Source of the DNA: an uncultured Gammaproteobacteria bacterium
GTDB taxonomy: Bacteria > Patescibacteriota > Microgenomatia > Levybacterales > GWA1-39-11
DNA length: 64,000 nt
Direction of reading: 5' to 3'
Assembly (NCBI GenBank): GCA_964472415.1
Contig: CAYYLC010000002.1
Location: 32,470 to 96,469 of the forward strand
The position numbers and the translations under genes were made by a program. Below are positions 729 through 11,864 of this stretch, one piece after another. The notes under the pieces were generated by a model. That model was not told the origin of the DNA. It saw only the letters and a list, made by a program, of their open reading frames with translations, and ran no database searches. Positions within the stretch are counted from its first letter, which is position 1. Every line of letters begins with the position of its first letter.

Positions 729-1334
729 ATGAATATAAAGCAAAAAGTTACGAGTGCAGTAATTCTCGGAAGCTTTGCACTTACTGTATTTGCACCAGTA
801 GGGGCATTTGCTGCACAAAGTAACGGAACTATAAAAAACAATGGACCATTCTCTTGGAATTCGATTTTCTCTGTAACCAAGAAGAAAACAAGCGTTTCTC
901 AGAACAACACTACAAAAGCAACCACGAACACCACTATTATCTCAAATACTGGCAAAAATAAGTCCGGGTTCAATGTGGGATGGGGAGGAAATAATACAAT
1001 TACCTCTGGAGATTCTACAACGAATGTTGGTGTTGTCGTGGTCGGAGGATCAAACGCTACAATTGACGAATGCGATTGCGAAGAAAGCTCATCGACAAGC
1101 ACCATTTCAAATAATGGCCCGCTGAGCAAAAATACAATAGTATCAGTCAATAAAAGTAAAAAGTCTGTTTCTCAAAACAACACTACTATTTCAAATACAA
1201 ATACAACAGTTGTTTCAAATACCGGTAAAAACTCAACTGGATTTAATGGAGGGAATTCTTCTTCTATCACAAGCGGGAATTCTGATACATCAGTATTTGT
1301 ACTCGTTGGAGGTTCAGCAAATATTAATAACTAA
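729..1334 (+). CDS. Secreted Asn/Thr-rich repeat protein (signal peptide; two ~75-aa internal repeats); paralog of the three downstream minus-strand repeat proteins
   Basis: N-terminal signal peptide (VILGSFALTVFAPVGAFAAQS) and strong SD (AAAGGAGGTG). Internal duplication: NNGPFSWNSIFSVTKKKTSVSQNNTT...TSGDSTTNVGVVVVGGSNATI versus NNGPLSKNTIVSVNKSKKSVSQNNTT...TSGNSDTSVFVLVGGSANIN. The CDC motif lies between the repeats. Confidence 0.75.
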   Translation: MNIKQKVTSAVILGSFALTVFAPVGAFAAQSNGTIKNNGPFSWNSIFSVTKKKTSVSQNNTTKATTNTTIISNTGKNKSGFNVGWGGNNTITSGDSTTNVGVVVVGGSNATIDECDCEESSSTSTISNNGPLSKNTIVSVNKSKKSVSQNNTTISNTNTTVVSNTGKNSTGFNGGNSSSITSGNSDTSVFVLVGGSANINN

Positions 1335-1358
1335 TTAAGGCCGCTTTTTTAGTTTTTC

Positions 1359-1398
1359 AAACCCTTTCTTAAGTACACAGGAAGGGTTTGTTTTTTTA
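1359..1398 (+). terminator. Rho-independent terminator after the 729-1334 gene
   Basis: Hairpin aaacccttt...aagggttt followed by a T-run (tgttttttt). It lies between the convergent 729 gene and the sortase gene. Confidence 0.5.
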
Positions 1399-1953
1399 AA
1401 TTGGTTTCGCAAATACCAATAGTCGTCTCAACGCAGTCCCCACTGGTGCACACGTTTGTAAAATTAAAATATCTCCCTGCGGTTCTGTAAGATATTGCAC
1501 CTGATCCGGCCATACTTCTTTCTTATCATACACCTTATATTCATACTCACTCCCATCATTTCGGATAATGATTTTTTCACCTATTTTGACCTCACCAAGT
1601 CGGAAGAATGCCGTATTGTACCGGGTTATCCGCCACGGCACGTCTGAGCTATGTGCAAACAAATACACTGTACCACTCTCTCCTGGCAATGAAGAATTTT
1701 TTGCATGTGCGACTCCTTCCTTCAATTTTTCTCTATACTCATCTTGATTAAATGGGTCTACGTCTTTAATAACTTTTGAAAATACTCCGAGAGAGGGGAT
1801 TTCTACAGAAAACTCGACTGCATTTTTTTCTTGTTGAGAATATACGGGAGGAAAAAAGAATTCTTTTGCGAGCGGATAATAAATAAAAACTAATCCTAAA
1901 AAAGAAAACGCCATTAAGGCGTTTCCGATATTCTTCTTGAGCCTGGTATTCAT
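1396..1953 (-). CDS. Sortase-family transpeptidase (small, N-terminal membrane anchor)
   Basis: N-terminal TM (ALMAFSFLGLVFIYYPL). Catalytic His in YLFAHSS, TLxTC-type motif ILILQTCAP with catalytic Cys, and a downstream Arg (ALRRLL). It is the last gene of a minus-strand operon of LPXTG/repeat proteins. Confidence 0.75.
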   Translation of the reverse strand: MNTRLKKNIGNALMAFSFLGLVFIYYPLAKEFFFPPVYSQQEKNAVEFSVEIPSLGVFSKVIKDVDPFNQDEYREKLKEGVAHAKNSSLPGESGTVYLFAHSSDVPWRITRYNTAFFRLGEVKIGEKIIIRNDGSEYEYKVYDKKEVWPDQVQYLTEPQGDILILQTCAPVGTALRRLLVFAKPI

Positions 1954-1983
1954 AAGTATTGTATCTTACCGTACGAGGCTACT

Positions 1984-3108
1984 CTAGGCAAGCGCTGGTG
2001 GCGCATTTCCCGAATGAAAACGCAGATACAGACCAAGCATGAAAAGCATTAAAAACATAATGGTAAAAAGATATGTCAACGGGAGCCCACCAGTCACTGG
2101 GAGCACTGCACCATTTGCAGGGCCCTGATCACCATTACCTCCACCGCCATGGCCACCATTCCCAGACTGAACTGTAGATTTTGGTGTATCAGTTGGCTTT
2201 TCAGGCGCTTCTGGTTCTTCTGGAGTCTCAGGTGTTTTTGGCTCACAACTTACACACGTTGTTATTGCGGTACTGCTGTTGATATTTTCATTTTTAACCG
2301 TAATATCACTCTCTATATCTCCTGTTACAATTGCAACATCTCCCAGATTTCCCTGTGCTTTATTTCCGCCAGTATTGAGCTTATGCTTTATATTATTGGT
2401 GATGTTTGCGAGATTTACGACATTGGTAATTGTAGTGTTTTTTTCGTTTACCGTAACGATGTTTACAGAATTGCTTCCGTTTCCAGATATAACTACTGAA
2501 GATGTGTGGGTGCCTGTCTGAGATAGAGCAAAGCTATTATTAATATTTTTGTTCACCACATCAGTAGTTGCGATAATATTTCCAGTTTTTATCCAAACAT
2601 CACCGCTATTGTAATGTGCGTTGTTGTTACCTGTATTCGAATCTGTCTTTACATTATTTGTAATATTTGCAGTATTATTCTGACTAGTAGTTGAGCTTGA
2701 ATTATTTGAAGAATTTACGACATTATGAGAATGAGAACTATTTCCAGAGACTACTATATTTGCCCCTCCATTACAGCAACTGTTGTTATTTGCCACATTT
2801 GAATTAATATTTGTGTTCGTTACCGTTGTATCAGTAGAAACATTTCCCGTTTCTATATTTACTTCACCACCATTGCTATCAGCGCTGTTATTGCCTGTAT
2901 TCGAATCTGACTCTACATTATTTGTAATATTTGATTCATTATTCTGAGATATAACACTTTTGTTCTCAATCTTTATATTCGTTTCATTATTAGAAGAAGA
3001 TCCATTTCCTTCAACTACAATATTAATTTGCTCAGCCATAACCTGCAAGCTAAGCACTTGGTGAATAATGGGCAGGCAGATAAGTAATAATGCTGCCTTT
3101 TTTATCAT
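1984..3108 (-). CDS. LPXTG-anchored Asn/Thr/Ser-rich repeat surface protein (sortase substrate)
   Basis: Start chosen at MIKKAALLLICLPIIHQVLSLQVMA (signal peptide); its ATG overlaps the TGA stop of the upstream gene (ATGA). The C-terminus is a canonical cell-wall sorting signal: a Pro/Glu/Lys/Thr linker (PKTPETPEEPEAPEKPTDTPK), then LPVTG, then a hydrophobic stretch (LPLTYLFTIMFLMLFMLGLYL), then RFHSG. The body carries tandem ~48-aa repeats (QNNTANITNNVKTDSNTGNNNAHYNSGDV.I.TG) and a CC motif. Confidence 0.8.
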   Translation of the reverse strand: MIKKAALLLICLPIIHQVLSLQVMAEQINIVVEGNGSSSNNETNIKIENKSVISQNNESNITNNVESDSNTGNNSADSNGGEVNIETGNVSTDTTVTNTNINSNVANNNSCCNGGANIVVSGNSSHSHNVVNSSNNSSSTTSQNNTANITNNVKTDSNTGNNNAHYNSGDVWIKTGNIIATTDVVNKNINNSFALSQTGTHTSSVVISGNGSNSVNIVTVNEKNTTITNVVNLANITNNIKHKLNTGGNKAQGNLGDVAIVTGDIESDITVKNENINSSTAITTCVSCEPKTPETPEEPEAPEKPTDTPKSTVQSGNGGHGGGGNGDQGPANGAVLPVTGGLPLTYLFTIMFLMLFMLGLYLRFHSGNAPPALA

Positions 3109-5411
3109 AAGAATAGATTTACTCCTCGCAGAGCAAGTGATTTCATTGGTACAAATATCTTTTTCAAAAAAATGAGTACTCCAAGTACTGGCAATGCGAG
3201 AATTAACCATGCAAGATTGATAGTAATCGATTCATCAGCTACTGTCGCAGAATCGTCTTGCCCAACAATTGATGCAACAGTAGCCTCTGACAAATCTTTT
3301 CCAGAGGTTTTTTCACCCCGGACTGTACCTGCGACAATCTTTTGTTCGTTTTCATCATCAATTCCTGCAACATACGTAACATTTTCATTGCCACTATTTT
3401 CTACAACTACCTCAGTTTTTGAAGATTTTGCGTTAGAAGATACATTTTGAGTAGTATTCTGTTCATTATTAAATTTCTCACTATTTCCACCAATATTTTG
3501 TGCGGTATTTTCCTTTTTATGCCCTGGAGTCACAAAATCTCCTATCCAGCTTCCGAACACATTCACGACAGTAACAAGCATCCTTCCCCCACCACTCACA
3601 TTGTTATTTACAAAGTTCACGATATTCGCAACAATCTGAGCGTCCCCTGTCTGGATATTTGAATCTCCGTCAGTATTATAGTTTGCATCATTTTCACCAG
3701 TATTTGCACTTAGGTTTATATTATTCTCAATGTTTGCAGTGTTAGTTTGACTTGTTGTGTTTGTATTGGTGTTATCTATATCACTATTATTGTAAGATCC
3801 TACACCATTCTCATTGTTCTTTGCAGTAACGCTCCCTGTTGTAGGGTCAACATAAAACTCTGTCCCAGCGGAACCTGCCATATTCGATCCATTCTCTGCT
3901 CCAAATAACTTTCCTACCCAATTCCCAGCTTCATTAACAATTACGAGCCACCAGTCCCCGCCATTGATATTTGAATTTGCGATATTTAAAACATTTGCGT
4001 CAATCGATGCGTCCCCTGTCGTAACATTTGAAACTCCGCCAGTATTATAATTTGTACTATTACCTCCCGTTACCGCATCAAAAACAAGGTTATTATTAAT
4101 AGTTGCATCATTGTATTGGAATGTTTCATCAGTATTTATGTTAGTTACTTCCGAATTGTTGTAAGAACCTGCGCCGTTATTGGTATTTGCCGCACTGTTT
4201 TGTGCATAACATGACCCTCCGCAGATTGATTGCATCATTTCCTCAGTAAGAATTATGTCTCCCACGAGGTCTCCGAATATATTTACCACTCCATAGATGA
4301 TGTCTCCAGCCAGATTATTGTTTGCAAACGTCATAACATTTGCGGAAACATTTGCGTCACCTGTGATAATTGTAGAATCTCCCCCTGTATTGAAATTCGC
4401 TGAGTTATTACCTGAGTTTGCAGAAAGATTTAAATTATTCCCGACATATGCGTCGTTATTTTGATTCGTCTTATTTGTGTTCGTGTTATCTACATCACTA
4501 TTATTATAAGATCCAGCACCATTATTGGTATTCTGCGCGACAGCTTCTTCCGGCATGCATCCTTGGATACAATTTGCCCCAAAGTCTAGAATTATGTCAC
4601 CAGTATGGTCATCGAGAATATTAAATTCAGCAATTGCTACCCCGTCTACGTTCGTATTTACAGATGTTACAACAGTTCCCGTTACATTCGCATCTCCTGT
4701 GGTGATCGTAGAATCTCCTACATTGTAAGATGCAGAATTATCTCCTGTTACGGATGATTGCTCTATGTTGTTTCCTACATTCGCACTATTATTTTGAGTC
4801 GTATTATTCGAATTATTAGTCGTTGCTGATCCGTTATTTGAAGAATGAGCGCCATTTCCGCTATTTACTACTCCAGCACTGCCATTCTGAGAGCCATTAT
4901 TTGTAGCAGTATTCATATTTCCACTTGTAATAACATTTGAAGCATTATGTGCGTCATCGGTTTCTACTGTAGTGCTTCCTACATTTCTATTTGCATTCGT
5001 TCCAGTATTGCCATTTGGAGTTTGTACGCTATTTGAGTTATTAGTATTTCCTGGATTGGAGTTATAATTTGGCTTTGGTTTCCAAGCATTCTCTGAAGGC
5101 TTCTTTGGTACCTCAGGTGCTTTTGGCATATCTGGGCTCTTTGGAGCATCCGGAGTCTTAGGTCCTTCTGGTGTTTTTGGAGCATCCGGAGTCTTAGGTC
5201 CCTCTGGTGCCTTCGAGGATTCTGGACCTTTAGGGCTCTTCGGTGACTCAGGTGCTTTTGGTTCTTCAGGGGTCTTTGGCTCCTCAATTGTAGCTTCTGT
5301 GGTTGTTTCCGCAACTATGTCTTCCGCGATTACGACTGATGGTGCGACTGCACGCCCAAGGAGCACGAGGATCAGTGCTATTGTTAGTATCTTTTGTGTT
5401 ATTGTTTTCAT
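3105..5411 (-). CDS. Large secreted Asn/Thr/Gly-rich repeat surface protein with a PE/PK proline-rich linker and a C-terminal hydrophobic anchor
   Basis: Signal peptide MKTITQKILTIALILVLLGRAVAPSVVIA. It carries PEEPKAPESPKSPKGPE...PKTPDAPK repeats. Three ~110-aa repeats contain the shared core (A.YNTGGDS.I.TGDA.V.ANV). CxxxC motifs (CIQGCMPEE, CGGSCYAQN) lie between repeats. The C-terminal TM segment LAWLILALPVLGVLIFL is followed by KK, but there is no canonical LPxTG. Confidence 0.7.
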   Translation of the reverse strand: MKTITQKILTIALILVLLGRAVAPSVVIAEDIVAETTTEATIEEPKTPEEPKAPESPKSPKGPESSKAPEGPKTPDAPKTPEGPKTPDAPKSPDMPKAPEVPKKPSENAWKPKPNYNSNPGNTNNSNSVQTPNGNTGTNANRNVGSTTVETDDAHNASNVITSGNMNTATNNGSQNGSAGVVNSGNGAHSSNNGSATTNNSNNTTQNNSANVGNNIEQSSVTGDNSASYNVGDSTITTGDANVTGTVVTSVNTNVDGVAIAEFNILDDHTGDIILDFGANCIQGCMPEEAVAQNTNNGAGSYNNSDVDNTNTNKTNQNNDAYVGNNLNLSANSGNNSANFNTGGDSTIITGDANVSANVMTFANNNLAGDIIYGVVNIFGDLVGDIILTEEMMQSICGGSCYAQNSAANTNNGAGSYNNSEVTNINTDETFQYNDATINNNLVFDAVTGGNSTNYNTGGVSNVTTGDASIDANVLNIANSNINGGDWWLVIVNEAGNWVGKLFGAENGSNMAGSAGTEFYVDPTTGSVTAKNNENGVGSYNNSDIDNTNTNTTSQTNTANIENNINLSANTGENDANYNTDGDSNIQTGDAQIVANIVNFVNNNVSGGGRMLVTVVNVFGSWIGDFVTPGHKKENTAQNIGGNSEKFNNEQNTTQNVSSNAKSSKTEVVVENSGNENVTYVAGIDDENEQKIVAGTVRGEKTSGKDLSEATVASIVGQDDSATVADESITINLAWLILALPVLGVLIFLKKIFVPMKSLALRGVNLFL

Positions 5412-5507
5412 TTTTTTAGTTTTATTTTTTAATCTATTTTTAATTTTTGTTTTGGGTTTTGTAGAGGTGCTGCCGAAGTGCTAGCAACCACCTCTACTCC
5501 CGCCCAA

Positions 5508-6788
5508 TTAGTTGGACATTCCAAATGTTGCGAAAAATGCTGCCCAGCTGAATGAGAATTCAAGGTTTGGCATTTCTGGCATATCAAAAGAAAAGTCTCC
5601 TAAGATGTTTTCGTTTCCACTGTTTGAAACAGTCGTATCAGAAACAACGTTTCCGGTAGTAATGCTTGGATCAGAATATTCTCCCTCTCCAACATTGTAA
5701 CCAGCTTCGTTATTTCCAGCGTCTGCATCAGCTTCTACGTTGTTGGTCAAATTAGCAGTGTTTCCCTGTCCAACAGTTTGTGTGTTGTCAAGAGTTAAGC
5801 CGATGTAATTTTCGTCTTTATCCCACCAATTTTTCCACCATTTGTGATCTTTGTCACCTGCATTAGCTCCGTTTCCGGAAATTTCAGCAGTGACATCGTA
5901 TTCACATCCGCAATCAACATCTGCTGCATTGAAGTTAACAGCATTGTCAACTCCAACAGTTACTGTTGAATCACCACCCATACCAGCATTGATGTAAACA
6001 TCACCGCCAGTGTTGTAGTTTGCTTTATTGTCACCAGTCTCAGCATCTGCACCTACATTATTAGTAATGTTTGCTGCATTATTCTGAGAAAGTCTTGTGT
6101 CGTTTGTAAGCGCAGCTGCGATTTCATTATCAGATCCTGATCCGTTTCCGATAATCACAAAGCTTGCTGATGGTGTAGGGGTTGCGCTGTTTCCGCTTCC
6201 AATTCGAGCAATATTAGTGTTTGCTTGAGTAGTTACGTCAACATTTGCGAATGCTTTACCAGTATTTATATGAACTTCGCCGCCGGTGTTTTCACCTGCT
6301 TTGTTGTTCCCAGTCTGAGCATCAACTCCTACATTATTTGTTACATTAGCAGTATTTTTCTGATTAACAGTAGTTTTGTTCTCATTTACGAGTCCAACTT
6401 TGTTGTCAGAATCTGAACCGTTCTTTTTAACGGTAACGTCAGCGCCTCCTGCTGCACAACAATCAACCTCAGCAATATTCTTATTGAGGTCGTTTGAAAC
6501 ATTAGCAGTTACATCTGCTTTACCGGTATTAACGTAAACGTCTCCACCAGTATTGTAGTTAGCTTTATTGTCGCCTGTATCTGCTTTTGTTGTTACGTTG
6601 TTGGTGACATTTGCTGTGTTATTCTGGTTAACGGTAGTTTTATTGTTAGATTCAACAATTACTTTATTATCAGATCCTGATCCGTTTCCAGAGATTTCTA
6701 TAGTACCTGCGAGTGCTGGAGTAGCAACATTAAGAAGCATAGCTCCTGCTGCGAGTACTGAAAAGGTTTGTTTTGTAAAATTTGTCAT
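5508..6788 (-). CDS. Secreted Asn/Thr-rich repeat surface protein (four copies of the ~48-aa module)
   Basis: Start chosen at MTNFTKQTFSVLAAGAMLLNVATPALA (signal peptide), preceded by AAGGAGGTG 9 nt upstream; the track ORF extends to 6860. Repeats follow QNNTANVTNNV...TGDNKANYNTGGDVYVNTG. Interspersed motifs: VDCCAAGG and VDCGCEYD. Confidence 0.75.
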   Translation of the reverse strand: MTNFTKQTFSVLAAGAMLLNVATPALAGTIEISGNGSGSDNKVIVESNNKTTVNQNNTANVTNNVTTKADTGDNKANYNTGGDVYVNTGKADVTANVSNDLNKNIAEVDCCAAGGADVTVKKNGSDSDNKVGLVNENKTTVNQKNTANVTNNVGVDAQTGNNKAGENTGGEVHINTGKAFANVDVTTQANTNIARIGSGNSATPTPSASFVIIGNGSGSDNEIAAALTNDTRLSQNNAANITNNVGADAETGDNKANYNTGGDVYINAGMGGDSTVTVGVDNAVNFNAADVDCGCEYDVTAEISGNGANAGDKDHKWWKNWWDKDENYIGLTLDNTQTVGQGNTANLTNNVEADADAGNNEAGYNVGEGEYSDPSITTGNVVSDTTVSNSGNENILGDFSFDMPEMPNLEFSFSWAAFFATFGMSN

Positions 6789-6879
6789 TATTTGTTTCAC
6801 CTCCTTCTCATAATGATTGTTCGATTTCTCGAACGCACTTCGTAAACTTGCTCCGCACATTTCGCCTTCGGTAGCCCCT

Positions 6880-6937
6880 TAAAAACGAAAAACGGAGACT
6901 TCCGCACACAAGAAATATTGTGTGTAGAAGCCTCCGT
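6880..6937 (-). terminator. Long imperfect hairpin plus U-tract; probable terminator of the 6992-7222 gene
   Basis: acggagacttccgcacacaagaaatattgtgtgtagaagcctccgt (about 6892-6937) forms a stem of about 20 bp with G-U pairs. On the minus strand it is followed by TTTTCGTTTTT. Confidence 0.45.
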
Positions 6938-6991
6938 TTGCGGTCAGCTTTCGTTACTAGATACTACTTATACCCTATGAGCCATGTGGTG

Positions 6992-7222
6992 TCAAGAGTG
7001 TAAGTTTATCCGAATTTTTCCACTTGTCCGAATACCTTTTTCATAAGAAGAATTTTTTGGAGAATGGTCTTCATCGCCAATTCCAACGCTAGTTTTTTTT
7101 ATATTTCTGACGGTAATTTGAGTGACGGTGTTATCCTGAACAAAGATCTCAACACTGCCATATCGCACGCTCTTTAAGGCATTTTTTATTTCTGAAAGTA
7201 AATCGACCTTTAAGTTACTCAT
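6992..7222 (-). CDS. Small YezD/DUF2292-like protein
   Basis: LLSEIKNALKSVRYGSVEIFVQDNTVTQITVRNIKK fits the YGSV...QDG.V.QI pattern of the YezD family; this is a match from memory. Confidence 0.4.
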   Translation of the reverse strand: MSNLKVDLLSEIKNALKSVRYGSVEIFVQDNTVTQITVRNIKKTSVGIGDEDHSPKNSSYEKGIRTSGKIRINLHS

Positions 7223-7245
7223 AAAATGATAAACGAATCTTGAAT

Positions 7246-8067
7246 TTAATTAAAATTAATTTCTATCGTTTTCTTTTCCCCGCTAATCTCTCCAACTTGG
7301 AGAACGATAGGGGACTTCGTGTCTGATTCATTGATCGCAAGACCGAGTCTCGTATATTTAGTAGAAATCGCCTGCACTTCAACTGGATCGTTGTGAATAT
7401 CTGGCGCAAGCTTTTCATCTATATTTCCATTCACTACAATTCGGATATAATCTCGAGTATTGAGCTGAATTGCCTGATCAAGGTTATTCACAATCTTAAG
7501 ATTTAAAATAAGAAATATTCGTCCTTCAATAGAAGTTGCTCGCTTTCCTTGCACAATAATCTGCTTTCTCAGCTCTGCATTCTCTATAGTGTAATCAAAT
7601 GAACCCACCTCTTCCCCTGCTTCATCTGTCAAAGGGAAATTTGATGTGTCGTCCAGCTTTTCTACTGCAATTGCGTCAGGAAGTGCTGCACCGACTTCTG
7701 TTGTGTTATTAACAGCAGATGTAGAGTTCATGCTTCTCACTAAGCTCATTGCCCCAAGGATAAAAATTACAACTACTAAGACTGGAAGTGCCAGCTTTAT
7801 AAAAAACTTTTTATTAAATTTTGGGAATTTAAAATTTTTAAAAGGGTTTTTCAGAGATCCTAGTTTATTTTTTACCTGAATATTTTCTCGGATTGTACGA
7901 TTATAAAAATTTACTGAAGAAAAAAGTACTACTTGTTTAATTTTCTCAATTCCCAATAAGGGATTCGGGATGTTGATAGAAATTGTTGAATTATCCTTAT
8001 CCATATTTTTTGCTATAAAAAAAGCCCCTTTGCTGGGGCAGTTCAGTTCGAGGATAGTATCAAACAA
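7246..8067 (-). CDS. Membrane-anchored hypothetical protein with a DUF4352-like C-terminal beta domain
   Basis: Single TM (FIKLALPVLVVVIFILGAMSL). The C-terminal region resembles the DUF4352 fold; this is weak similarity judged by eye. Confidence 0.3.
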   Translation of the reverse strand: MFDTILELNCPSKGAFFIAKNMDKDNSTISINIPNPLLGIEKIKQVVLFSSVNFYNRTIRENIQVKNKLGSLKNPFKNFKFPKFNKKFFIKLALPVLVVVIFILGAMSLVRSMNSTSAVNNTTEVGAALPDAIAVEKLDDTSNFPLTDEAGEEVGSFDYTIENAELRKQIIVQGKRATSIEGRIFLILNLKIVNNLDQAIQLNTRDYIRIVVNGNIDEKLAPDIHNDPVEVQAISTKYTRLGLAINESDTKSPIVLQVGEISGEKKTIEINFN

Positions 8068-8086
8068 TACTCAACGAGTCAATATG

Positions 8087-8629
8087 TTATAGTATTTTCA
8101 CTGTCATTTTTGTGAAATTATCAGAATCTGAACGTGATACTTCCACTTCTACAGTCATCTCTCCGTTACTGGCAGCAACCTTATTCAGAATGGCTCCATT
8201 TGTATTTGTCGTAACAACACTCGTCGTATTCATGTCATGCCCACTGACCTTCTCTTTATACCAGTCGGTAATCTGAGAAGGAGTATCCACAGACTGCGCC
8301 ACTATGACTCCATTGCTTTGTGAAAGGACCGTGCTCCCAGGATACATAAATACACTTTCGTGACTACTGGTATCTCTCGGAGTTATAGGATTTACCGTAG
8401 GAGATTTTAGAACACCTTTCTTTTCTTGAATTAGTTCTTCTTCTCTTTTTTTAATATCATCTTCTCTTAATACCTCTCTATTGTTATTTTTAATATTTTT
8501 TTGTTCTGATTCTATTTCTTGATTACCATCAGTAATATATACGAATATATTACCCACTAAAAGCACTGCTAGTACGCCTCCTAAAAAGATAATCAACTTA
8601 TTTTTTTGCAAGATATCAGAAAAATTCAT
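8087..8629 (-). CDS. Membrane-anchored hypothetical protein
   Basis: N-terminal TM (LIIFLGGVLAVLLVGNIFVYI), a charged coiled region and a Ser/Thr-rich C-terminus. No recognisable domain. Confidence 0.4.
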   Translation of the reverse strand: MNFSDILQKNKLIIFLGGVLAVLLVGNIFVYITDGNQEIESEQKNIKNNNREVLREDDIKKREEELIQEKKGVLKSPTVNPITPRDTSSHESVFMYPGSTVLSQSNGVIVAQSVDTPSQITDWYKEKVSGHDMNTTSVVTTNTNGAILNKVAASNGEMTVEVEVSRSDSDNFTKMTVKIL

Positions 8630-8701: not shown

Positions 8702-9946
8702 ATGAAATTCTTCAAAAAAATCCCTGCTATCCCACGAAAATTATTTACGTGGTTTAGAAAGCTTTCTTGGAAAAAAAAGCTCCTCGTTAGCATCGTTCTT
8801 ATCATCTTATTCTTTGTTATTATGGGGCAAATTGCAGCGCTTACTGCACCTCCCAAATATACTCTCGCAAAGGCTGAACGACATGACATTACAGAAACTG
8901 TCACTGAGACAGGAAATATCTCCACCAATGGAAACACGCAAATATTTTCTCCAACAAATGGGGTAGTAACTGAAATATATGTCTCGAATGGCACAAGAGT
9001 TACAAAAGGACAAAACCTATTAACCATCCAAAGCACTGCAACTCAGCAAGAACAACAGGCAGCTTATGCAAATTATCTTTCTGCGGTAGCCTCTCTCAAT
9101 GCAGCACAAGCAAACTTAAATGTATTGAGAGCTGATATGTATACGAACTGGGAACAATTCAGAAATCTCGCAACAAATGACACGTATGAAGATGGGAACA
9201 ATAATCCCGACGAACAAAATAGGGCTGCTGCAGAATTTCAGATTTCTCAAGATATGTGGCTTGCCGCAGAAAAGAAATTTAAAGATCAACAAACTGTTGT
9301 TGGGCAGGCAAGTGCACAAGTCAGTTCGAATTGGCTCTTATATCAAGCAACACAAAATGCAATAGTTCAAGCAACCAGAAATGGAGTGATTACAAATCTT
9401 ATGGTTCAATCTGGTGCAACGGTACAGGCACCTACCGCTATGGGAACAACGCAGCCCATTCTTAATATTACAAATCTCACAACTACTGAAGTAATCATTG
9501 CGCTGAGTGAAAGTGATATCGTAAAAATTAAAGAAGGGCAAGAGGTGACAATCGATGTTAATGCAGTAAACGATAAAACATACCAAGGAGTTGTTAATCG
9601 CATGGATACCGTCGGAACAAACAATCAGGGAGTAATCCGTTACAATGCATACATCGAAATTTCAGATCCTGATGAAAGCCTGCGCCCTGGCATGACTACT
9701 GATGCAGAAATCATCACAAATAAAATTAGCAATGTTTTATCCGTCCCGAACGCTGCAATAAAACCATATCAGGGAGGGCGCGCTGTACGAATCGTTAATC
9801 CAGAAAAAGAAGAAATAAAATACATTCCGGTAAAAATCGGAGTGCGTGGGAAAGATAGAACACAGATCTTGCATGGCATAGAAGAAGGACAAGAAGTAGT
9901 AACAGCGCTATCAAATGAACAAATTAGCCGCCCGGGACTATTCTAA
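8702..9946 (+). CDS. HlyD/MacA-family periplasmic adaptor (membrane fusion protein)
   Basis: N-terminal TM, then a coiled-coil-rich region with Ala/Gln heptads (QQEQQAAYANYLSAVASLNAAQANLNVL), then a beta-barrel C-terminus. It lies immediately upstream of ABC ATPase and FtsX permease genes. Confidence 0.7.
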   Translation: MKFFKKIPAIPRKLFTWFRKLSWKKKLLVSIVLIILFFVIMGQIAALTAPPKYTLAKAERHDITETVTETGNISTNGNTQIFSPTNGVVTEIYVSNGTRVTKGQNLLTIQSTATQQEQQAAYANYLSAVASLNAAQANLNVLRADMYTNWEQFRNLATNDTYEDGNNNPDEQNRAAAEFQISQDMWLAAEKKFKDQQTVVGQASAQVSSNWLLYQATQNAIVQATRNGVITNLMVQSGATVQAPTAMGTTQPILNITNLTTTEVIIALSESDIVKIKEGQEVTIDVNAVNDKTYQGVVNRMDTVGTNNQGVIRYNAYIEISDPDESLRPGMTTDAEIITNKISNVLSVPNAAIKPYQGGRAVRIVNPEKEEIKYIPVKIGVRGKDRTQILHGIEEGQEVVTALSNEQISRPGLF

Positions 9947-9957
9947 TTTCTGATGCA

Positions 9958-10653
9958 ATGCCAAACAAAACTCCACTTATCCAGCTAAAAAGTGTTACAA
10001 AACGCTACCCTTTGGGGGATAATGAATATTACCAAGCACTGAATGGAGTAAGCCTTGAAATCAATGAAGGAGAATTTGTTGCAATTATGGGGCCATCGGG
10101 AAGTGGAAAATCTACCACTATGCATATTATTGGAGCGCTTGATACTCCAACAACTGGAAAATATCTCTTAAAAGGGAAGGATATTAGCGCATACACTGAA
10201 GACCAGCTTGCAGACATTAGGAATAAAGAAATTGGATTTGTATTTCAATCATTTAATCTCCTCCCAAGAACTACCGTGCTTAAGAATGTAGAACGCCCTA
10301 TGCTATACGGAAAAATAGATCTCCAAGAACGAACCAAACGCGCAATGGATGCGCTCACGCTTGTAGGGATACCTGATAAAGCACAAAATTTATCAAACCA
10401 TATTTCGGGAGGACAAATTCAACGTGTTGCAATTGCCCGTGCCCTTGTCATGAATCCTGCAATCCTCCTTGCTGACGAACCAACTGGAAATCTGGACACA
10501 AAAACTTCTCATGAAATCATGAAGTTTATTAAAAATCTCCATGAAAAAGGGCACACAATTGTCCTCATCACGCACGAAGACGACATCGCACAATATGCAA
10601 AGCGTATTATTAGACTCGTTGATGGAAAAGTCATATCTGATAAAAAACAATAA
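9958..10653 (+). CDS. ABC transporter ATP-binding protein (MacB/LolD/FtsE-like)
   Basis: Walker A GPSGSGKST, ABC signature LSGGQIQRVAIARAL, Walker B ILLADEPTGNLD. Confidence 0.85.
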   Translation: MPNKTPLIQLKSVTKRYPLGDNEYYQALNGVSLEINEGEFVAIMGPSGSGKSTTMHIIGALDTPTTGKYLLKGKDISAYTEDQLADIRNKEIGFVFQSFNLLPRTTVLKNVERPMLYGKIDLQERTKRAMDALTLVGIPDKAQNLSNHISGGQIQRVAIARALVMNPAILLADEPTGNLDTKTSHEIMKFIKNLHEKGHTIVLITHEDDIAQYAKRIIRLVDGKVISDKKQ

Positions 10654-10658
10654 AAACT

Positions 10659-11864
10659 ATGGAATACAAAGAGATAATTCAGTCCGCAATCCAAGCATTA
10701 AAAAGCAACCTTCTCAGAACGTCGCTCACAATGCTTGGGATTATTATCGGAATTACGTCTGTAATTCTTATCTATTCAATTGGACAAGGGGCCGTTGCAT
10801 TTGTCACAAATGAATTGTCATCATTTGGAACTGATTATTTCCAAATCACACCAGGATCTGACTCCTTCAGTTCACTTGTAGGCACGAATACACTCACTAT
10901 GGAAGATGTAGAAGTCCTCCAAAATGATGCTTCTCTAACAAATATAAATAAAGTTGCTCCTATTGCTGTCACTTCTCAAATCGTAGTAGGGAATGATGAA
11001 GAAGATCTATTGACTATTATGGGTATTACTCCAGAAGCAGGAGAAATTTTACGTCCAGAAATCCTCTATGGAGAATTTCTCACAGAAGATGCGGAATCAG
11101 AGCGGGTAGCAGTTATCGGATCTGAGGTGGCTGAGACATTTTTTGGAGAAGATACTGATCCCACTGGCGAAACGCTTCGAATTAAAGATTCTACATTTCG
11201 TGTTATCGGAGTTGATCATTCTACGAATGCACTTGCAGGAAGTGTGTTAAATAATAGCATCTATATTCCTATAACTATTGTCTTTAATGAGTTAACGGGA
11301 GAAGATACTATCCAGGAAATAGATGTCAGCGTGCATGACACAAACCAGATCAATCAAACAATCGCAGATGTAGAATCTCTGCTCCGTGAGCAACATGGAC
11401 TCGATGAAGGCGATGAAAGCGATTTTCGGATAGCAAGCGCGCAAGATATTCTTACAACAGTCGAAACAATAACCGGACTCTTAACGGCAATGATTGCGGG
11501 AATTTCAGGAATCTCACTCATTGTAGGAGGAGTTGGAGTTATGAATATTATGCTCGTATCTGTTACTGAACGGACTCGAGAAATAGGGCTCTTGAAAGCA
11601 ATAGGTGCAAAAGAAAAGGATATCCTAACACAGTTTTTAATTGAATCTGTTGTAATGAGTGTAATCGGAGGACTTATCGGGATTACTCTCGGCATATCTG
11701 GTGCATTTATTATTTCACTGTTTGCAAATATTCCATTCGTCATAAGCCCTGTTGCAATCCTAATCGCAGTTGGCGTATCAACACTTGTGGGAATTGTGTT
11801 TGGGATATATCCTGCCAAACGTGCTGCAAAACTTTCACCAATTGATGCGCTCCGATATGAATAA
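10659..11864 (+). CDS. ABC transporter permease, FtsX/MacB family
   Basis: N-terminal TM, a large extracytoplasmic domain and a C-terminal FtsX 4-TM module ([26 protein letters not shown]...[18 protein letters not shown]). It follows the ATPase. Confidence 0.8.
   Translation: MEYKEIIQSAIQALKSNLLRTSLTMLGIIIGITSVILIYSIGQGAVAFVTNELSSFGTDYFQITPGSDSFSSLVGTNTLTMEDVEVLQNDASLTNINKVAPIAVTSQIVVGNDEEDLLTIMGITPEAGEILRPEILYGEFLTEDAESERVAVIGSEVAETFFGEDTDPTGETLRIKDSTFRVIGVDHSTNALAGSVLNNSIYIPITIVFNELTGEDTIQEIDVSVHDTNQINQTIADVESLLREQHGLDEGDESDFRIASAQDILTTVETITGLLTAMIAGISGISLIVGGVGVMNIMLVSVTERTREIGLLKAIGAKEKDILTQFLIESVVMSVIGGLIGITLGISGAFIISLFANIPFVISPVAILIAVGVSTLVGIVFGIYPAKRAAKLSPIDALRYE

Follow-up and report, generated by a model that had tools for sequence, protein, structure and literature searches.

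The chaplins of Streptomyces (long ChpA-C and short ChpD-H, with a class E sortase) are paralogues that share one beta-rich domain with conserved Cys residues. Some of them carry a sortase signal at the C-terminus, by which they are fixed to peptidoglycan; others are secreted in free form. The short ones co-assemble with the sortase-anchored long ones into a surface layer, which provides a precedent for a system of anchored plus free paralogues (PMC5618241). For CPR bacteria, the mechanism of formation and the structure of the envelope "remain unclear" (PMC5220378). Sortase is near-ubiquitous in the Microgenomates (PMC6744442), and in the literature on CPR and Microgenomates sortases, S-layers and proteomics we found no description of the four proteins, A-D, that are discussed here.

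The stretch of DNA that was analysed (the window, 64 kb) encodes four Sec-type secreted, acidic paralogues and a small sortase. Their ORFs are all present at the positions and lengths given in an earlier note on this DNA (201, 375, 768 and 427 aa for the secreted proteins). The conserved unit also includes three genes upstream of D, and therefore spans 729-8629. It is best explained as an envelope cassette that occurs throughout the Microgenomates, here in a Levybacteria-related CPR bacterium. With a probability of roughly 0.5, A-D would make up a wall-tethered, self-associating surface coat or fibre in which D is the major subunit and B and C are the tethers, in a chaplin-like manner. The features of the cassette are as follows.

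729-1334, plus strand: A, 201-aa secreted paralogue (ORF, two module matches, perfect SD AAGGAGGTGA)
1363-1386, no strand assigned: terminator-like hairpin between the convergent A and sortase genes (consensus scan and sequence)
1396-1953, minus strand: small membrane-anchored sortase, 185 aa (Pfam PF04203)
1984-3111, minus strand: B, 375-aa sortase substrate, start MIKK
3105-5411, minus strand: C, 768-aa membrane-anchored paralogue
5452-5507, minus strand: conserved RNA hairpin directly 3' of D (sequence, folding versus shuffles, covariance model)
5508-6791, minus strand: D, 427-aa secreted paralogue, proposed major subunit, start MTNF
6835-6842, minus strand: 5'UTR motif CGAAGUGC, 51 nt upstream of the D start codon
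6885-6940, minus strand: long hairpin plus T-run between the DUF2292 gene and D (sequence and consensus scan)
6992-7222, minus strand: DUF2292 (YezD-like) small protein (Pfam PF10055, E=3e-9)
7246-8067, minus strand: up273, membrane-anchored protein of unassigned family, conserved upstream of DUF2292-D
8087-8629, minus strand: up180, small membrane-anchored protein of unassigned family, a conserved upstream gene

The cassette order is kept in about 80 species-level genomes across the Microgenomates, which are ultra-small, uncultured bacteria. The recurring arrangement, up273 - DUF2292 - D - C - B - sortase - A (convergent), was found in Levy-, Roizman-, Gottesman-, Ames-, Woese-, Davies- and Chisholmbacteria, and hundreds of metagenomic proteins are full-length orthologues of D or C, with 40-75% identity. 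Considering the 75 loci with enough flank, up273 lies upstream of DUF2292-D in every one, the DUF2292 gene lies directly upstream of D in 68, and up180 is found upstream in at least 34, the last figure being a lower bound from single-sequence phmmer searches. Neither up273 nor up180 matches anything in Pfam or the PDB, even at E=10. In at least 32 related loci, the other side of the cassette has a two-module protein of about 200 aa, encoded after the sortase gene on the opposite strand. The earlier note had considered the locus lineage-specific, a view that is contradicted by the identity of the D and C orthologues and by the recurrence of the gene order in seven Microgenomates groups. Its description as the largest accessory element of the window does not stand either: the cassette is widely conserved, adjoins nusA-infB-rpsO-pnp in one relative, and no compositional anomaly was seen across the window.

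All four proteins are built from one all-beta module of about 85 aa that is rich in Asn, Gly and Thr. Thirteen copies (two in A, three in B, four in C and four in D) could be aligned over about 85 columns, and they recur with a period of 88-115 aa. The repeat peptides cited previously are indeed found in A-D. The repeat itself is real; the proposed unit of about 48 aa, however, represents only the best-conserved core of the module. That the module belongs to no named family was borne out, as neither A-D nor the module profile matched Pfam, NCBIfam or PDB sequences, and a Foldseek search of the PDB returned nothing at E<=1e-3. A PF22251 (PFF1_TM) tag on one C homologue was discarded as a spurious, sub-threshold match. 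Within the 64-kb window no ORF other than A-D carries the module, and a scan of viral contigs with the D profile found no relatives there. The module alignment was too variable for use in the locus scan. N-x-S/T sequons are not enriched beyond what composition predicts, and therefore give no hint of N-glycosylation.

The signal peptides and anchors of A-D are typical of surface proteins, and the mode of attachment differs per paralogue and is conserved. In B, the signal peptide is followed by three modules and a wall spacer rich in Pro and Gly; the C-terminus (...AVLPVTGGLPLTYLFTIMFLMLFMLGLYLRFHS...) then has LPVTG ahead of a hydrophobic segment and a basic residue (R), so that the canonical LPVTG sorting signal reported earlier is indeed present. 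B is the only sortase substrate in the window. No NCBIfam family was returned for B at E<=1, and therefore no anchor model matched. C starts with a signal peptide and a Pro-rich N-terminal region, followed by a half-module (at about residues 140-165), four modules, all of which contain CxxxC pairs and an additional beta-hairpin insert, and a disordered spacer of about 90 aa. It ends with a conserved INLAW motif, a TM helix and a basic tail. In its predicted structure the module cores have pLDDT values above 90 and a helix spans residues 733-753. D combines a signal peptide and four modules with two conserved Cys motifs (CC and CxC), and ends in a short, hydrophobic, conserved tail (MPEMP..FSFNxAALWAFFGMS). 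It has a pI of about 4, lacks a sorting signal (LPxTG occurs in 0 of 120 D homologues), and its AlphaFold model is all-beta (pLDDT 74, pTM 0.70). A has two divergent modules that are split by a CxC, and no anchor; its orthologues retain the CxC and differ in pI, half of them being basic. As was claimed before, A is convergently oriented, its partner being the sortase gene, and is preceded by a perfect SD of its own. The conserved Cys pairs at module boundaries are likely to be joined in disulfides, which would lock or cross-link the assembly. The disulfide-forming MdbA/VKOR pair is enriched in CPR genomes (PMC6744442).

The assignment of the gene at 1396-1953 as a small sortase proved correct. 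The protein matches Pfam PF04203 at E=8e-24 (84.2 bits, cut-off 26.6; profile positions 1-124 of 125) and TIGR01076 at 51.9 bits, above the cut-off of 39.35. It carries LFAHS (H101), ILQTC (C168) and a downstream Arg in LRR, and its N-terminus is a hydrophobic segment that forms a membrane anchor. The His/Cys/Arg motifs and the features of B (signal peptide, Pro/Gly-rich spacer, LPVTG, hydrophobic stretch, basic tail) resemble those of the Gram-positive housekeeping sortases and their LPXTG proteins. Unlike in those systems, the cassette sortase fits no defined class: no NCBIfam class model reaches its cut-off, and the models for classes D, E and F score far under theirs. In addition, B belongs to a co-conserved set of paralogues, and the sorting motif is GLSxTSG-like in several Microgenomates lineages. 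In related genomes, too, the position immediately upstream of the sortase gene is taken by a sortase substrate. LPxTG is present in 42 of the 53 three-module B proteins; among the seven listed without the motif, six have a GLSxTSG-like signal (mostly from Woesebacteria) and one (L060) has only a C-terminal TM helix. In Gottesman- and Amesbacteria one-module replacements of B are found, with either a GLSxTSG-like signal or only a C-terminal TM helix. The motif varies by lineage, being LPxTG for the most part and GLSxTSG-like in Woese-, Gottesman- and Amesbacteria.

A-D have no match to the chaplin family PF03777 and share with the chaplins only the anchored-plus-free arrangement. Their module is hydrophilic, acidic and about 85 aa long, whereas the chaplin domain is hydrophobic and about 40 aa long; moreover, A-D include a membrane-anchored member, C, and the organisms are unrelated. 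The proposed assembly of D on B and C would match, by analogy, the way in which CsgA assembles on CsgB in curli. Nevertheless, the module profile aligned to E. coli CsgA with an hhalign probability of 0.05%, and no match to Curlin_rpt PF07012 was obtained at E<=1. In contrast to the curli (CsgA/CsgB) and Fap amyloids, the system is monoderm and sortase-based, has no CsgG-type channel, and its repeat is four-fold longer. The SufB/SufD beta-helix and the RTX beta-roll are fold neighbours only, at 4-11% identity and with no HemolysinCabind or Suf match in Pfam. A-D lack the GGxGxDxUx nonapeptides (PF00353) of RTX proteins, and the Asp of the RTX calcium-binding turn is not conserved in the module.

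Several other explanations of the locus have been considered. As Asn makes up 15-18% of each of the four proteins, the similarity of the repeats could in principle be a matter of Asn/Thr/Gly bias, with the ORFs not forming a true family, and one A-B module pair does fall within the range of shuffles (z 1.0). However, when Smith-Waterman scores were compared with those of 100 composition-preserving shuffles, the module pairs among B, C and D gave mean z values of 8-21, and the A modules versus those of the other paralogues 4-8. The real score was matched by a shuffle in 4 of the 78 module pairs, all four involving A. Moreover, the invariant columns stay in register over the 13 modules and 80-90 orthologues, and a search with the module profile retrieved 2024 protein clusters at E<=1e-10. 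The repeat is therefore more than compositional bias, and the chance that it is an artefact, a reading that was rejected on the shuffle control, is close to nil. The clustering of a sortase gene with several secreted paralogues is also reminiscent of a sortase-polymerised pilus of the Gram-positive type with major and minor pilins, the more so as, among the sub-threshold NCBIfam matches, class C scores best for the sortase (56.9 bits). That score is far under the class C cut-off of 160, only B has a sorting signal and D, C and A have none, there is no Cna/Ig-like pilin domain according to Pfam, and the predicted models are not Ig-like. The pilus was rejected on these grounds and is considered highly improbable.

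The two remaining explanations accept A-D as surface proteins and question their joint assembly. In one, the CPR cell is an episymbiont and the paralogues are its independent adhesins or host-contact proteins, each of which binds a host or substrate ligand, with B displayed on the wall, C on the membrane, and D and A released. This is unlikely, albeit a reading to be taken seriously. Adhesins tend to diverge rapidly in sequence and in the number of repeats, yet here the module counts (4, 4, 3 and 2 in D, C, B and A), the lengths and the 40-75% identity are held superphylum-wide; such constancy of module number and length is more in keeping with a structural part of the envelope than with a fast-evolving adhesin. 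In addition, an anchorless secreted protein such as D, which has the strongest expression signals, is poorly explained as a stand-alone adhesin. In the other, D alone would be a classical, self-assembling S-layer protein that forms a two-dimensional lattice, and B, C and A would be unrelated minor wall proteins that share a domain. We consider this quite improbable, as A-D contain no SLH, CWB2, SLAP or other known anchoring domain (Pfam, NCBIfam) and conserved Cys pairs are atypical of S-layer proteins. Moreover, B, C and the sortase are strictly co-conserved with D, which argues for a joint function.

Pairing between the 5'UTR and the 3'UTR of the same mRNA is known in bacteria from hbs of B. 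subtilis and icaR of S. aureus, and the surroundings of D suggest a similar arrangement. The hairpin directly 3' of D has an outer stem TTGGG/CCCAA, a main stem GTAGAGGTG/CACCTCTAC (5497-5489 and 5469-5461) and an apical loop UAGCACUUCG (GCACTTCG at 5481-5474), and is not followed by a U-tract. The spacer between D and C folds more stably than its shuffled versions in 69 of the 70 loci, with a median z of -6, and the loop CACTTC is at least 90% conserved (79 sequences). The inner stem shows compensatory changes at 6 of 6 pairs, with 80-83% of cells paired. For the outer helix 55% of cells are paired; with the MAFFT alignment as input, RNAalifold retrieved no more than the inner helix, and the manual register was off by one in many rows, so that support for the outer stem rests on single-sequence folds. 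Over 1.4 Mb, a covariance model gave a single strong match on the plus strand of each locus, in every case right after D. In the window, no Rfam family reaches its gathering score at the hairpin, the best sub-threshold match being the pan motif (17.6 versus 36.2 bits).

The 5'UTR motif GAAGUGC is the exact reverse complement of the loop sequence GCACUUC. A GAAGUGC-like motif is found at -25 to -110 of D in 77 of 78 loci, and it could pair with the loop at all 7 positions in 60 of the 77 (90-97% pairing per position). Perfect 5'-3' complementarity of at least 7 nt occurs in 55 of 79 loci versus about 4 with shuffled UTRs, and compensatory motif/loop variants are seen in L008, L023, L029, L032, L050, L076 and L080. 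The complementary 7-mers could also be two inverted copies of one DNA-binding site. Like in hbs and icaR, a 3' element would pair with the 5' leader of its own mRNA, which in those cases controls stability or translation. The D cistron differs from these in its putative 7-8-nt kissing site in an apical loop, in a leader motif well upstream of the SD, in a pairing that is kept with compensatory changes superphylum-wide, and in its absence from Rfam. The hairpin at 6885-6940 could either terminate the upstream unit or serve as a structured leader for D; similar CCTCCGTTTT elements lie upstream of D in many related loci.

For the proposed coat or fibre the following may be envisaged. The sortase would join B covalently to peptidoglycan and C would be held in the membrane. 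D would be made in large excess and, together with A, would be kept at the surface via homotypic association of their modules with those of B and C, the outcome being a wall-tethered proteinaceous coat or fibre. The translation signals may set the stoichiometry: D has a perfect SD (AAGGAGGTGA; its start at 6791 is backed by this SD and by orthologues), no SD was seen upstream of C, the ATG of B overlaps the stop codon of C as ATGA, which would couple B to C, and the SD of the sortase gene is weak. The D mRNA would be a discrete species, the 5'UTR of which would pair with the loop of the conserved 3' hairpin, and this pairing is taken to stabilise the message. As the hairpin lacks a U-tract, an effect on the ratio of D to C is a matter of conjecture. 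A more elaborate proposal, which is put forward tentatively and as possible rather than probable, is that A-D are building blocks of the Microgenomates envelope that form a new sortase-tethered, disulfide-locked beta-repeat coat of an undescribed domain family, the stoichiometry of which is controlled by 5'UTR-3'-loop kissing that closes the mRNA of the major subunit.

Conserved repeat proteins of which one is probably fastened to the wall by a sortase are good candidates for proteins of an outer coat. The module of the cassette represents a domain family that is not annotated so far and comprises about 3,000 protein clusters, and the end-to-end pairing of the D mRNA would add a phylogenetically supported case of such pairing, in bacteria that are not yet culturable. 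The cassette also gives concrete, superphylum-conserved candidates for the envelope: the major secreted subunit, tethers to the wall and to the membrane, and an enzyme.

The four secreted repeat proteins A, B, C and D, each with a distinct conserved anchor, and the sortase encoded beside its substrate B form part of a cassette that spans 729-8629 in the window and is a core feature of the superphylum. All five genes reported in the earlier note are present in the ORF listing, from which the lengths below are taken.

Features of the A-D locus (window coordinates)
729-1334, plus strand: A, 201 aa
1396-1953, minus strand: sortase, 185 aa
1984-3111, minus strand: B, 375 aa
3105-5411, minus strand: C, 768 aa
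5452-5507, minus strand: 3' hairpin after D (from sequence, conservation and covariance model)
5508-6791, minus strand: D, 427 aa
6835-6842, minus strand: GAAGUGC-containing 5'UTR motif (reverse complement of the 3' hairpin loop)

Full-length orthologues of D and C, at 40-75% identity, come from genomes named as Levy-, Ames-, Davies- and Gottesmanbacteria, and scanning a single genome for each GTDB species yielded 80 loci, Roizman-, Woese- and Chisholmbacteria included too. An ORF and HMM map revealed the recurring order up180 - up273 - DUF2292 - D - C - B - sortase - A (the last on the opposite strand), in which up180 and up273 are putative membrane-anchored proteins. Counted as lower bounds among the loci with enough flank, C immediately follows D in at least 61 of 63 and the sortase lies downstream of D in at least 51 of 63, with up273 (75/75) and DUF2292 (at least 68/75) upstream. 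Typical sizes are four modules and ~420 aa for D, four and ~740 aa for C, three and ~380 aa for B, and two and ~200 aa for A. These orthologues, the 80 loci and their shared gene order refute the earlier description of a "lineage-specific" accessory element. The superphylum-wide orthologues and recurring order, together with the unremarkable GC content of the window and the setting in a 74%-identical relative, where the cassette is flanked by a MacAB-type efflux operon and nusA-infB-rpsO-pnp, thus identify the cassette as a core feature.

The three genes co-conserved with it at 6992-8629 (minus strand) encode one small protein of the DUF2292/YezD type and two proteins with a membrane anchor, the latter two without a match in Pfam or the PDB; one possibility is that all three are assembly factors. 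A divergent operon at 8702-11864 (plus strand) consists of a gene for a HlyD-family membrane-fusion protein (Pfam) and two ORFs whose sizes match those of the two proteins annotated at the equivalent position of the related locus L001, an ABC ATPase and an FtsX/MacB permease; in L001, too, the HlyD-family operon adjoins the cassette. Many of the loci (L005-L010, L013, L015-L017 and many others) come from clearly Microgenomates MAGs titled "uncultured Gammaproteobacteria bacterium", evidently a placeholder or labelling artefact.

The repeat family itself is real. Thirteen modules (four in D, four in C, three in B and two in A) can be aligned over ~85 residues with the consensus GNGxGSxN ... Q-N-N-x-A-N-V-x-N-N ... 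TGxNxAxYNTGGDVxIxTGxA ... N-x-N, and a Cys pair (CC, CxC or CxxxC) comes after most of them. The 48-aa unit proposed earlier corresponds to the best-conserved core; the full unit is the longer one. A composition-preserving shuffle control, as suggested in the earlier note, gave mutual mean z scores of 8-21 for B, C and D and of 4-8 for the more divergent A, and shuffles reached the true score in just 4 of the 78 module pairs, which rules out a compositional artefact. None of the other ORFs scanned in the window contains the module.

The view that the module lacks a named family was borne out by empty Pfam-A, NCBIfam and PDB sequence searches with A-D and the module profile. Precomputed Pfam domains were absent from the 120 best D homologues, and one, judged spurious, was annotated among the 120 best C homologues; the named entries in both sets are "hypothetical protein". 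Against 1.84 billion cluster representatives, the profile retrieved 3042 clusters, defined at 50% identity, at E<=1e-3; with the cut-off tightened to E<=1e-10 the number was 2024. Proteins looked up for their atypical architecture (5-10 modules) are likewise annotated as hypothetical; they come from Gottesman-, Woese- and Microgenomates bacteria and, in one case, from a Parcubacteria-group bacterium. The AlphaFold2 model of D (81-sequence alignment; pLDDT 74, pTM 0.70) is all-beta, with a strand pattern repeated identically in every module, and that of C (90 sequences) combines module cores of pLDDT >90 and a C-terminal helix with disordered Pro-rich and Ser/Thr-rich regions. Foldseek against the PDB returned nothing at E<=1e-3, its top two being the functional amyloids FapC and CsgA, and an hhalign comparison of the module with E. 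coli CsgA was negative. In view of these results the solenoid or Asn-ladder fold put forward earlier is compatible with the data, though not proven.

The N-termini of A-D, as read from the sequences, have a typical Sec signal of basic residues, a hydrophobic stretch and AxA. The mechanical ORFs of B and D extend further upstream than the chosen starts; the shorter D start was fixed because of the orthologue N-termini and a perfect Shine-Dalgarno (SD) sequence, AAGGAGGTGA, which precedes the ATG at 6791 by 8 nt. A also has a perfect SD sequence and the sortase gene a weak one, none was found upstream of C, and the B start codon overlaps the C stop codon as ATGA. Strong acidity is family-wide in D, C and B; A is the only paralogue with variable charge (pI ~4 to 9.4; basic in half of 38 orthologues, from loci L005-L084).

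The sortase gives a full-domain match to Pfam PF04203 (E=8e-24) and contains the His, Cys and Arg motifs; it reached none of the NCBIfam class cut-offs. Its sole LPVTG-type substrate in the 64-kb window is B, which ends in LPVTG, a hydrophobic stretch and Arg. In the related loci the protein encoded directly before the sortase likewise bears a C-terminal sorting signal, LPxTG in most. Woese-, Gottesman- and Amesbacteria have in its place a motif resembling GLSxTSG or GLAATAG, with a TM helix and basic tail behind it, both in B orthologues (L037, L051, L056, L063, L064, L071) and in the one-module protein of ~195 aa that sometimes takes the place of B (L022, L028, L030, L033, L035, L036, L041, L043, L049). 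This switch suggests that substrate motif and sortase co-evolved. A sorting signal was found in 0 of the best 120 D homologues; D ends in a short conserved hydrophobic tail, MPEMP..FSFNxAALWAFFGMS. At the end of C, an INLAW motif that hardly varies precedes a TM helix and a cluster of basic residues. The tails of D (~5508-5600) and C (~3105-3220) share the start hydrophobic-N-x-A-(A/W)-L, which could be a sortase-independent recognition or processing motif.

The D mRNA carries a further conserved feature. The 96-nt D-C spacer forms a strong hairpin without a U-tract, and in 69 of 70 related loci its folding is much stronger than that of shuffled sequences (median z -6). Conservation of the apical loop, CACUUC, reaches at least 90% among 79 aligned sequences, and compensatory changes occur at all six of six inner-stem pairs. 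In 1.4 Mb the covariance model gave one strong plus-strand match per locus, each immediately 3' of D, and also matched three loci left out of model building; Rfam has no family for this hairpin. The exact reverse complement of the loop, CGAAGUGC, is located in the D leader, 51 nt before the start codon, and a GAAGUGC-like motif is found at -25 to -110 of D in 77 of 78 loci, 60 of these 77 allowing full 7-position pairing with the loop. Perfect complementarity extends over at least 7 nt in 55 of 79 loci; with shuffled leaders the number is ~4. Across L005-L084 the conserved GAAGUGC sits about 50-90 nt ahead of D and its partner loop reads GCACUUC, compensatory variants in several lineages apart. 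Variant loops are accompanied by variant leaders: ACACUUC with GAAGUGU (L023, L029, L032, L080), UGCACCU with AGGUGCA (L008), UGCACUCU with AGAGUGCA (L050) and GACACUU with AAGUGUC (L076). A long-range kissing interaction thus likely closes the D mRNA on itself. Alternatively, GAAGUGC/GCACUUC might be one DNA-binding site in two inverted copies; the RNA interaction is favoured because a covarying hairpin holds the 3' copy in its loop.

The DUF2292-D leader contains a long hairpin with a T-run, a CCTCCGTTTTCGTTT-type element (6885-6940, minus strand), as do the regions upstream of D in L012, L024, L030, L044, L071, L083 and others. Several loci have, further downstream, a AAAACGAAAACGG segment that could pair with the T-run instead, an arrangement that could be a terminator/antiterminator.

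With regard to function, we infer that B would be attached to peptidoglycan and C held in the membrane, and that D, whose translation signal is the strongest and whose mRNA may be stabilised, would be the abundant subunit, held at the surface through module-module association, so that A-D may assemble into a wall-tethered coat or fibre. Among working analogies the nearest is the chaplin system, which also combines anchored and free paralogues: sortase-anchored long forms tether a layer of free short forms (PMC5618241). Curli CsgB/CsgA offers a second analogy. Membership of the chaplin or curli families was rejected because the Pfam and profile tests failed, and a sortase-polymerised pilus because sorting signals are confined to one protein, the enzyme falls outside class C and Ig-like pilin domains are absent. 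The Cys pairs, closely spaced at module boundaries and invariant or nearly so within each family (D residues 111-112 and 294/296; C 281/285 and 397/401; CC and CxxC in B; CxC in A), might serve as local disulfides, as cross-links between subunits or as metal sites. The enrichment of sortase and the disulfide-forming MdbA/VKOR pair in CPR genomes (PMC6744442) fits their conservation.

Our literature search found no paper describing the A-D proteins, and reviews still treat the CPR envelope as unresolved (PMC5220378; PMC13293708). Sortase-linked surface systems are known as a kind; new in this putative one are the undescribed domain family it is built from, the conserved four-paralogue design and the conserved mRNA feature.
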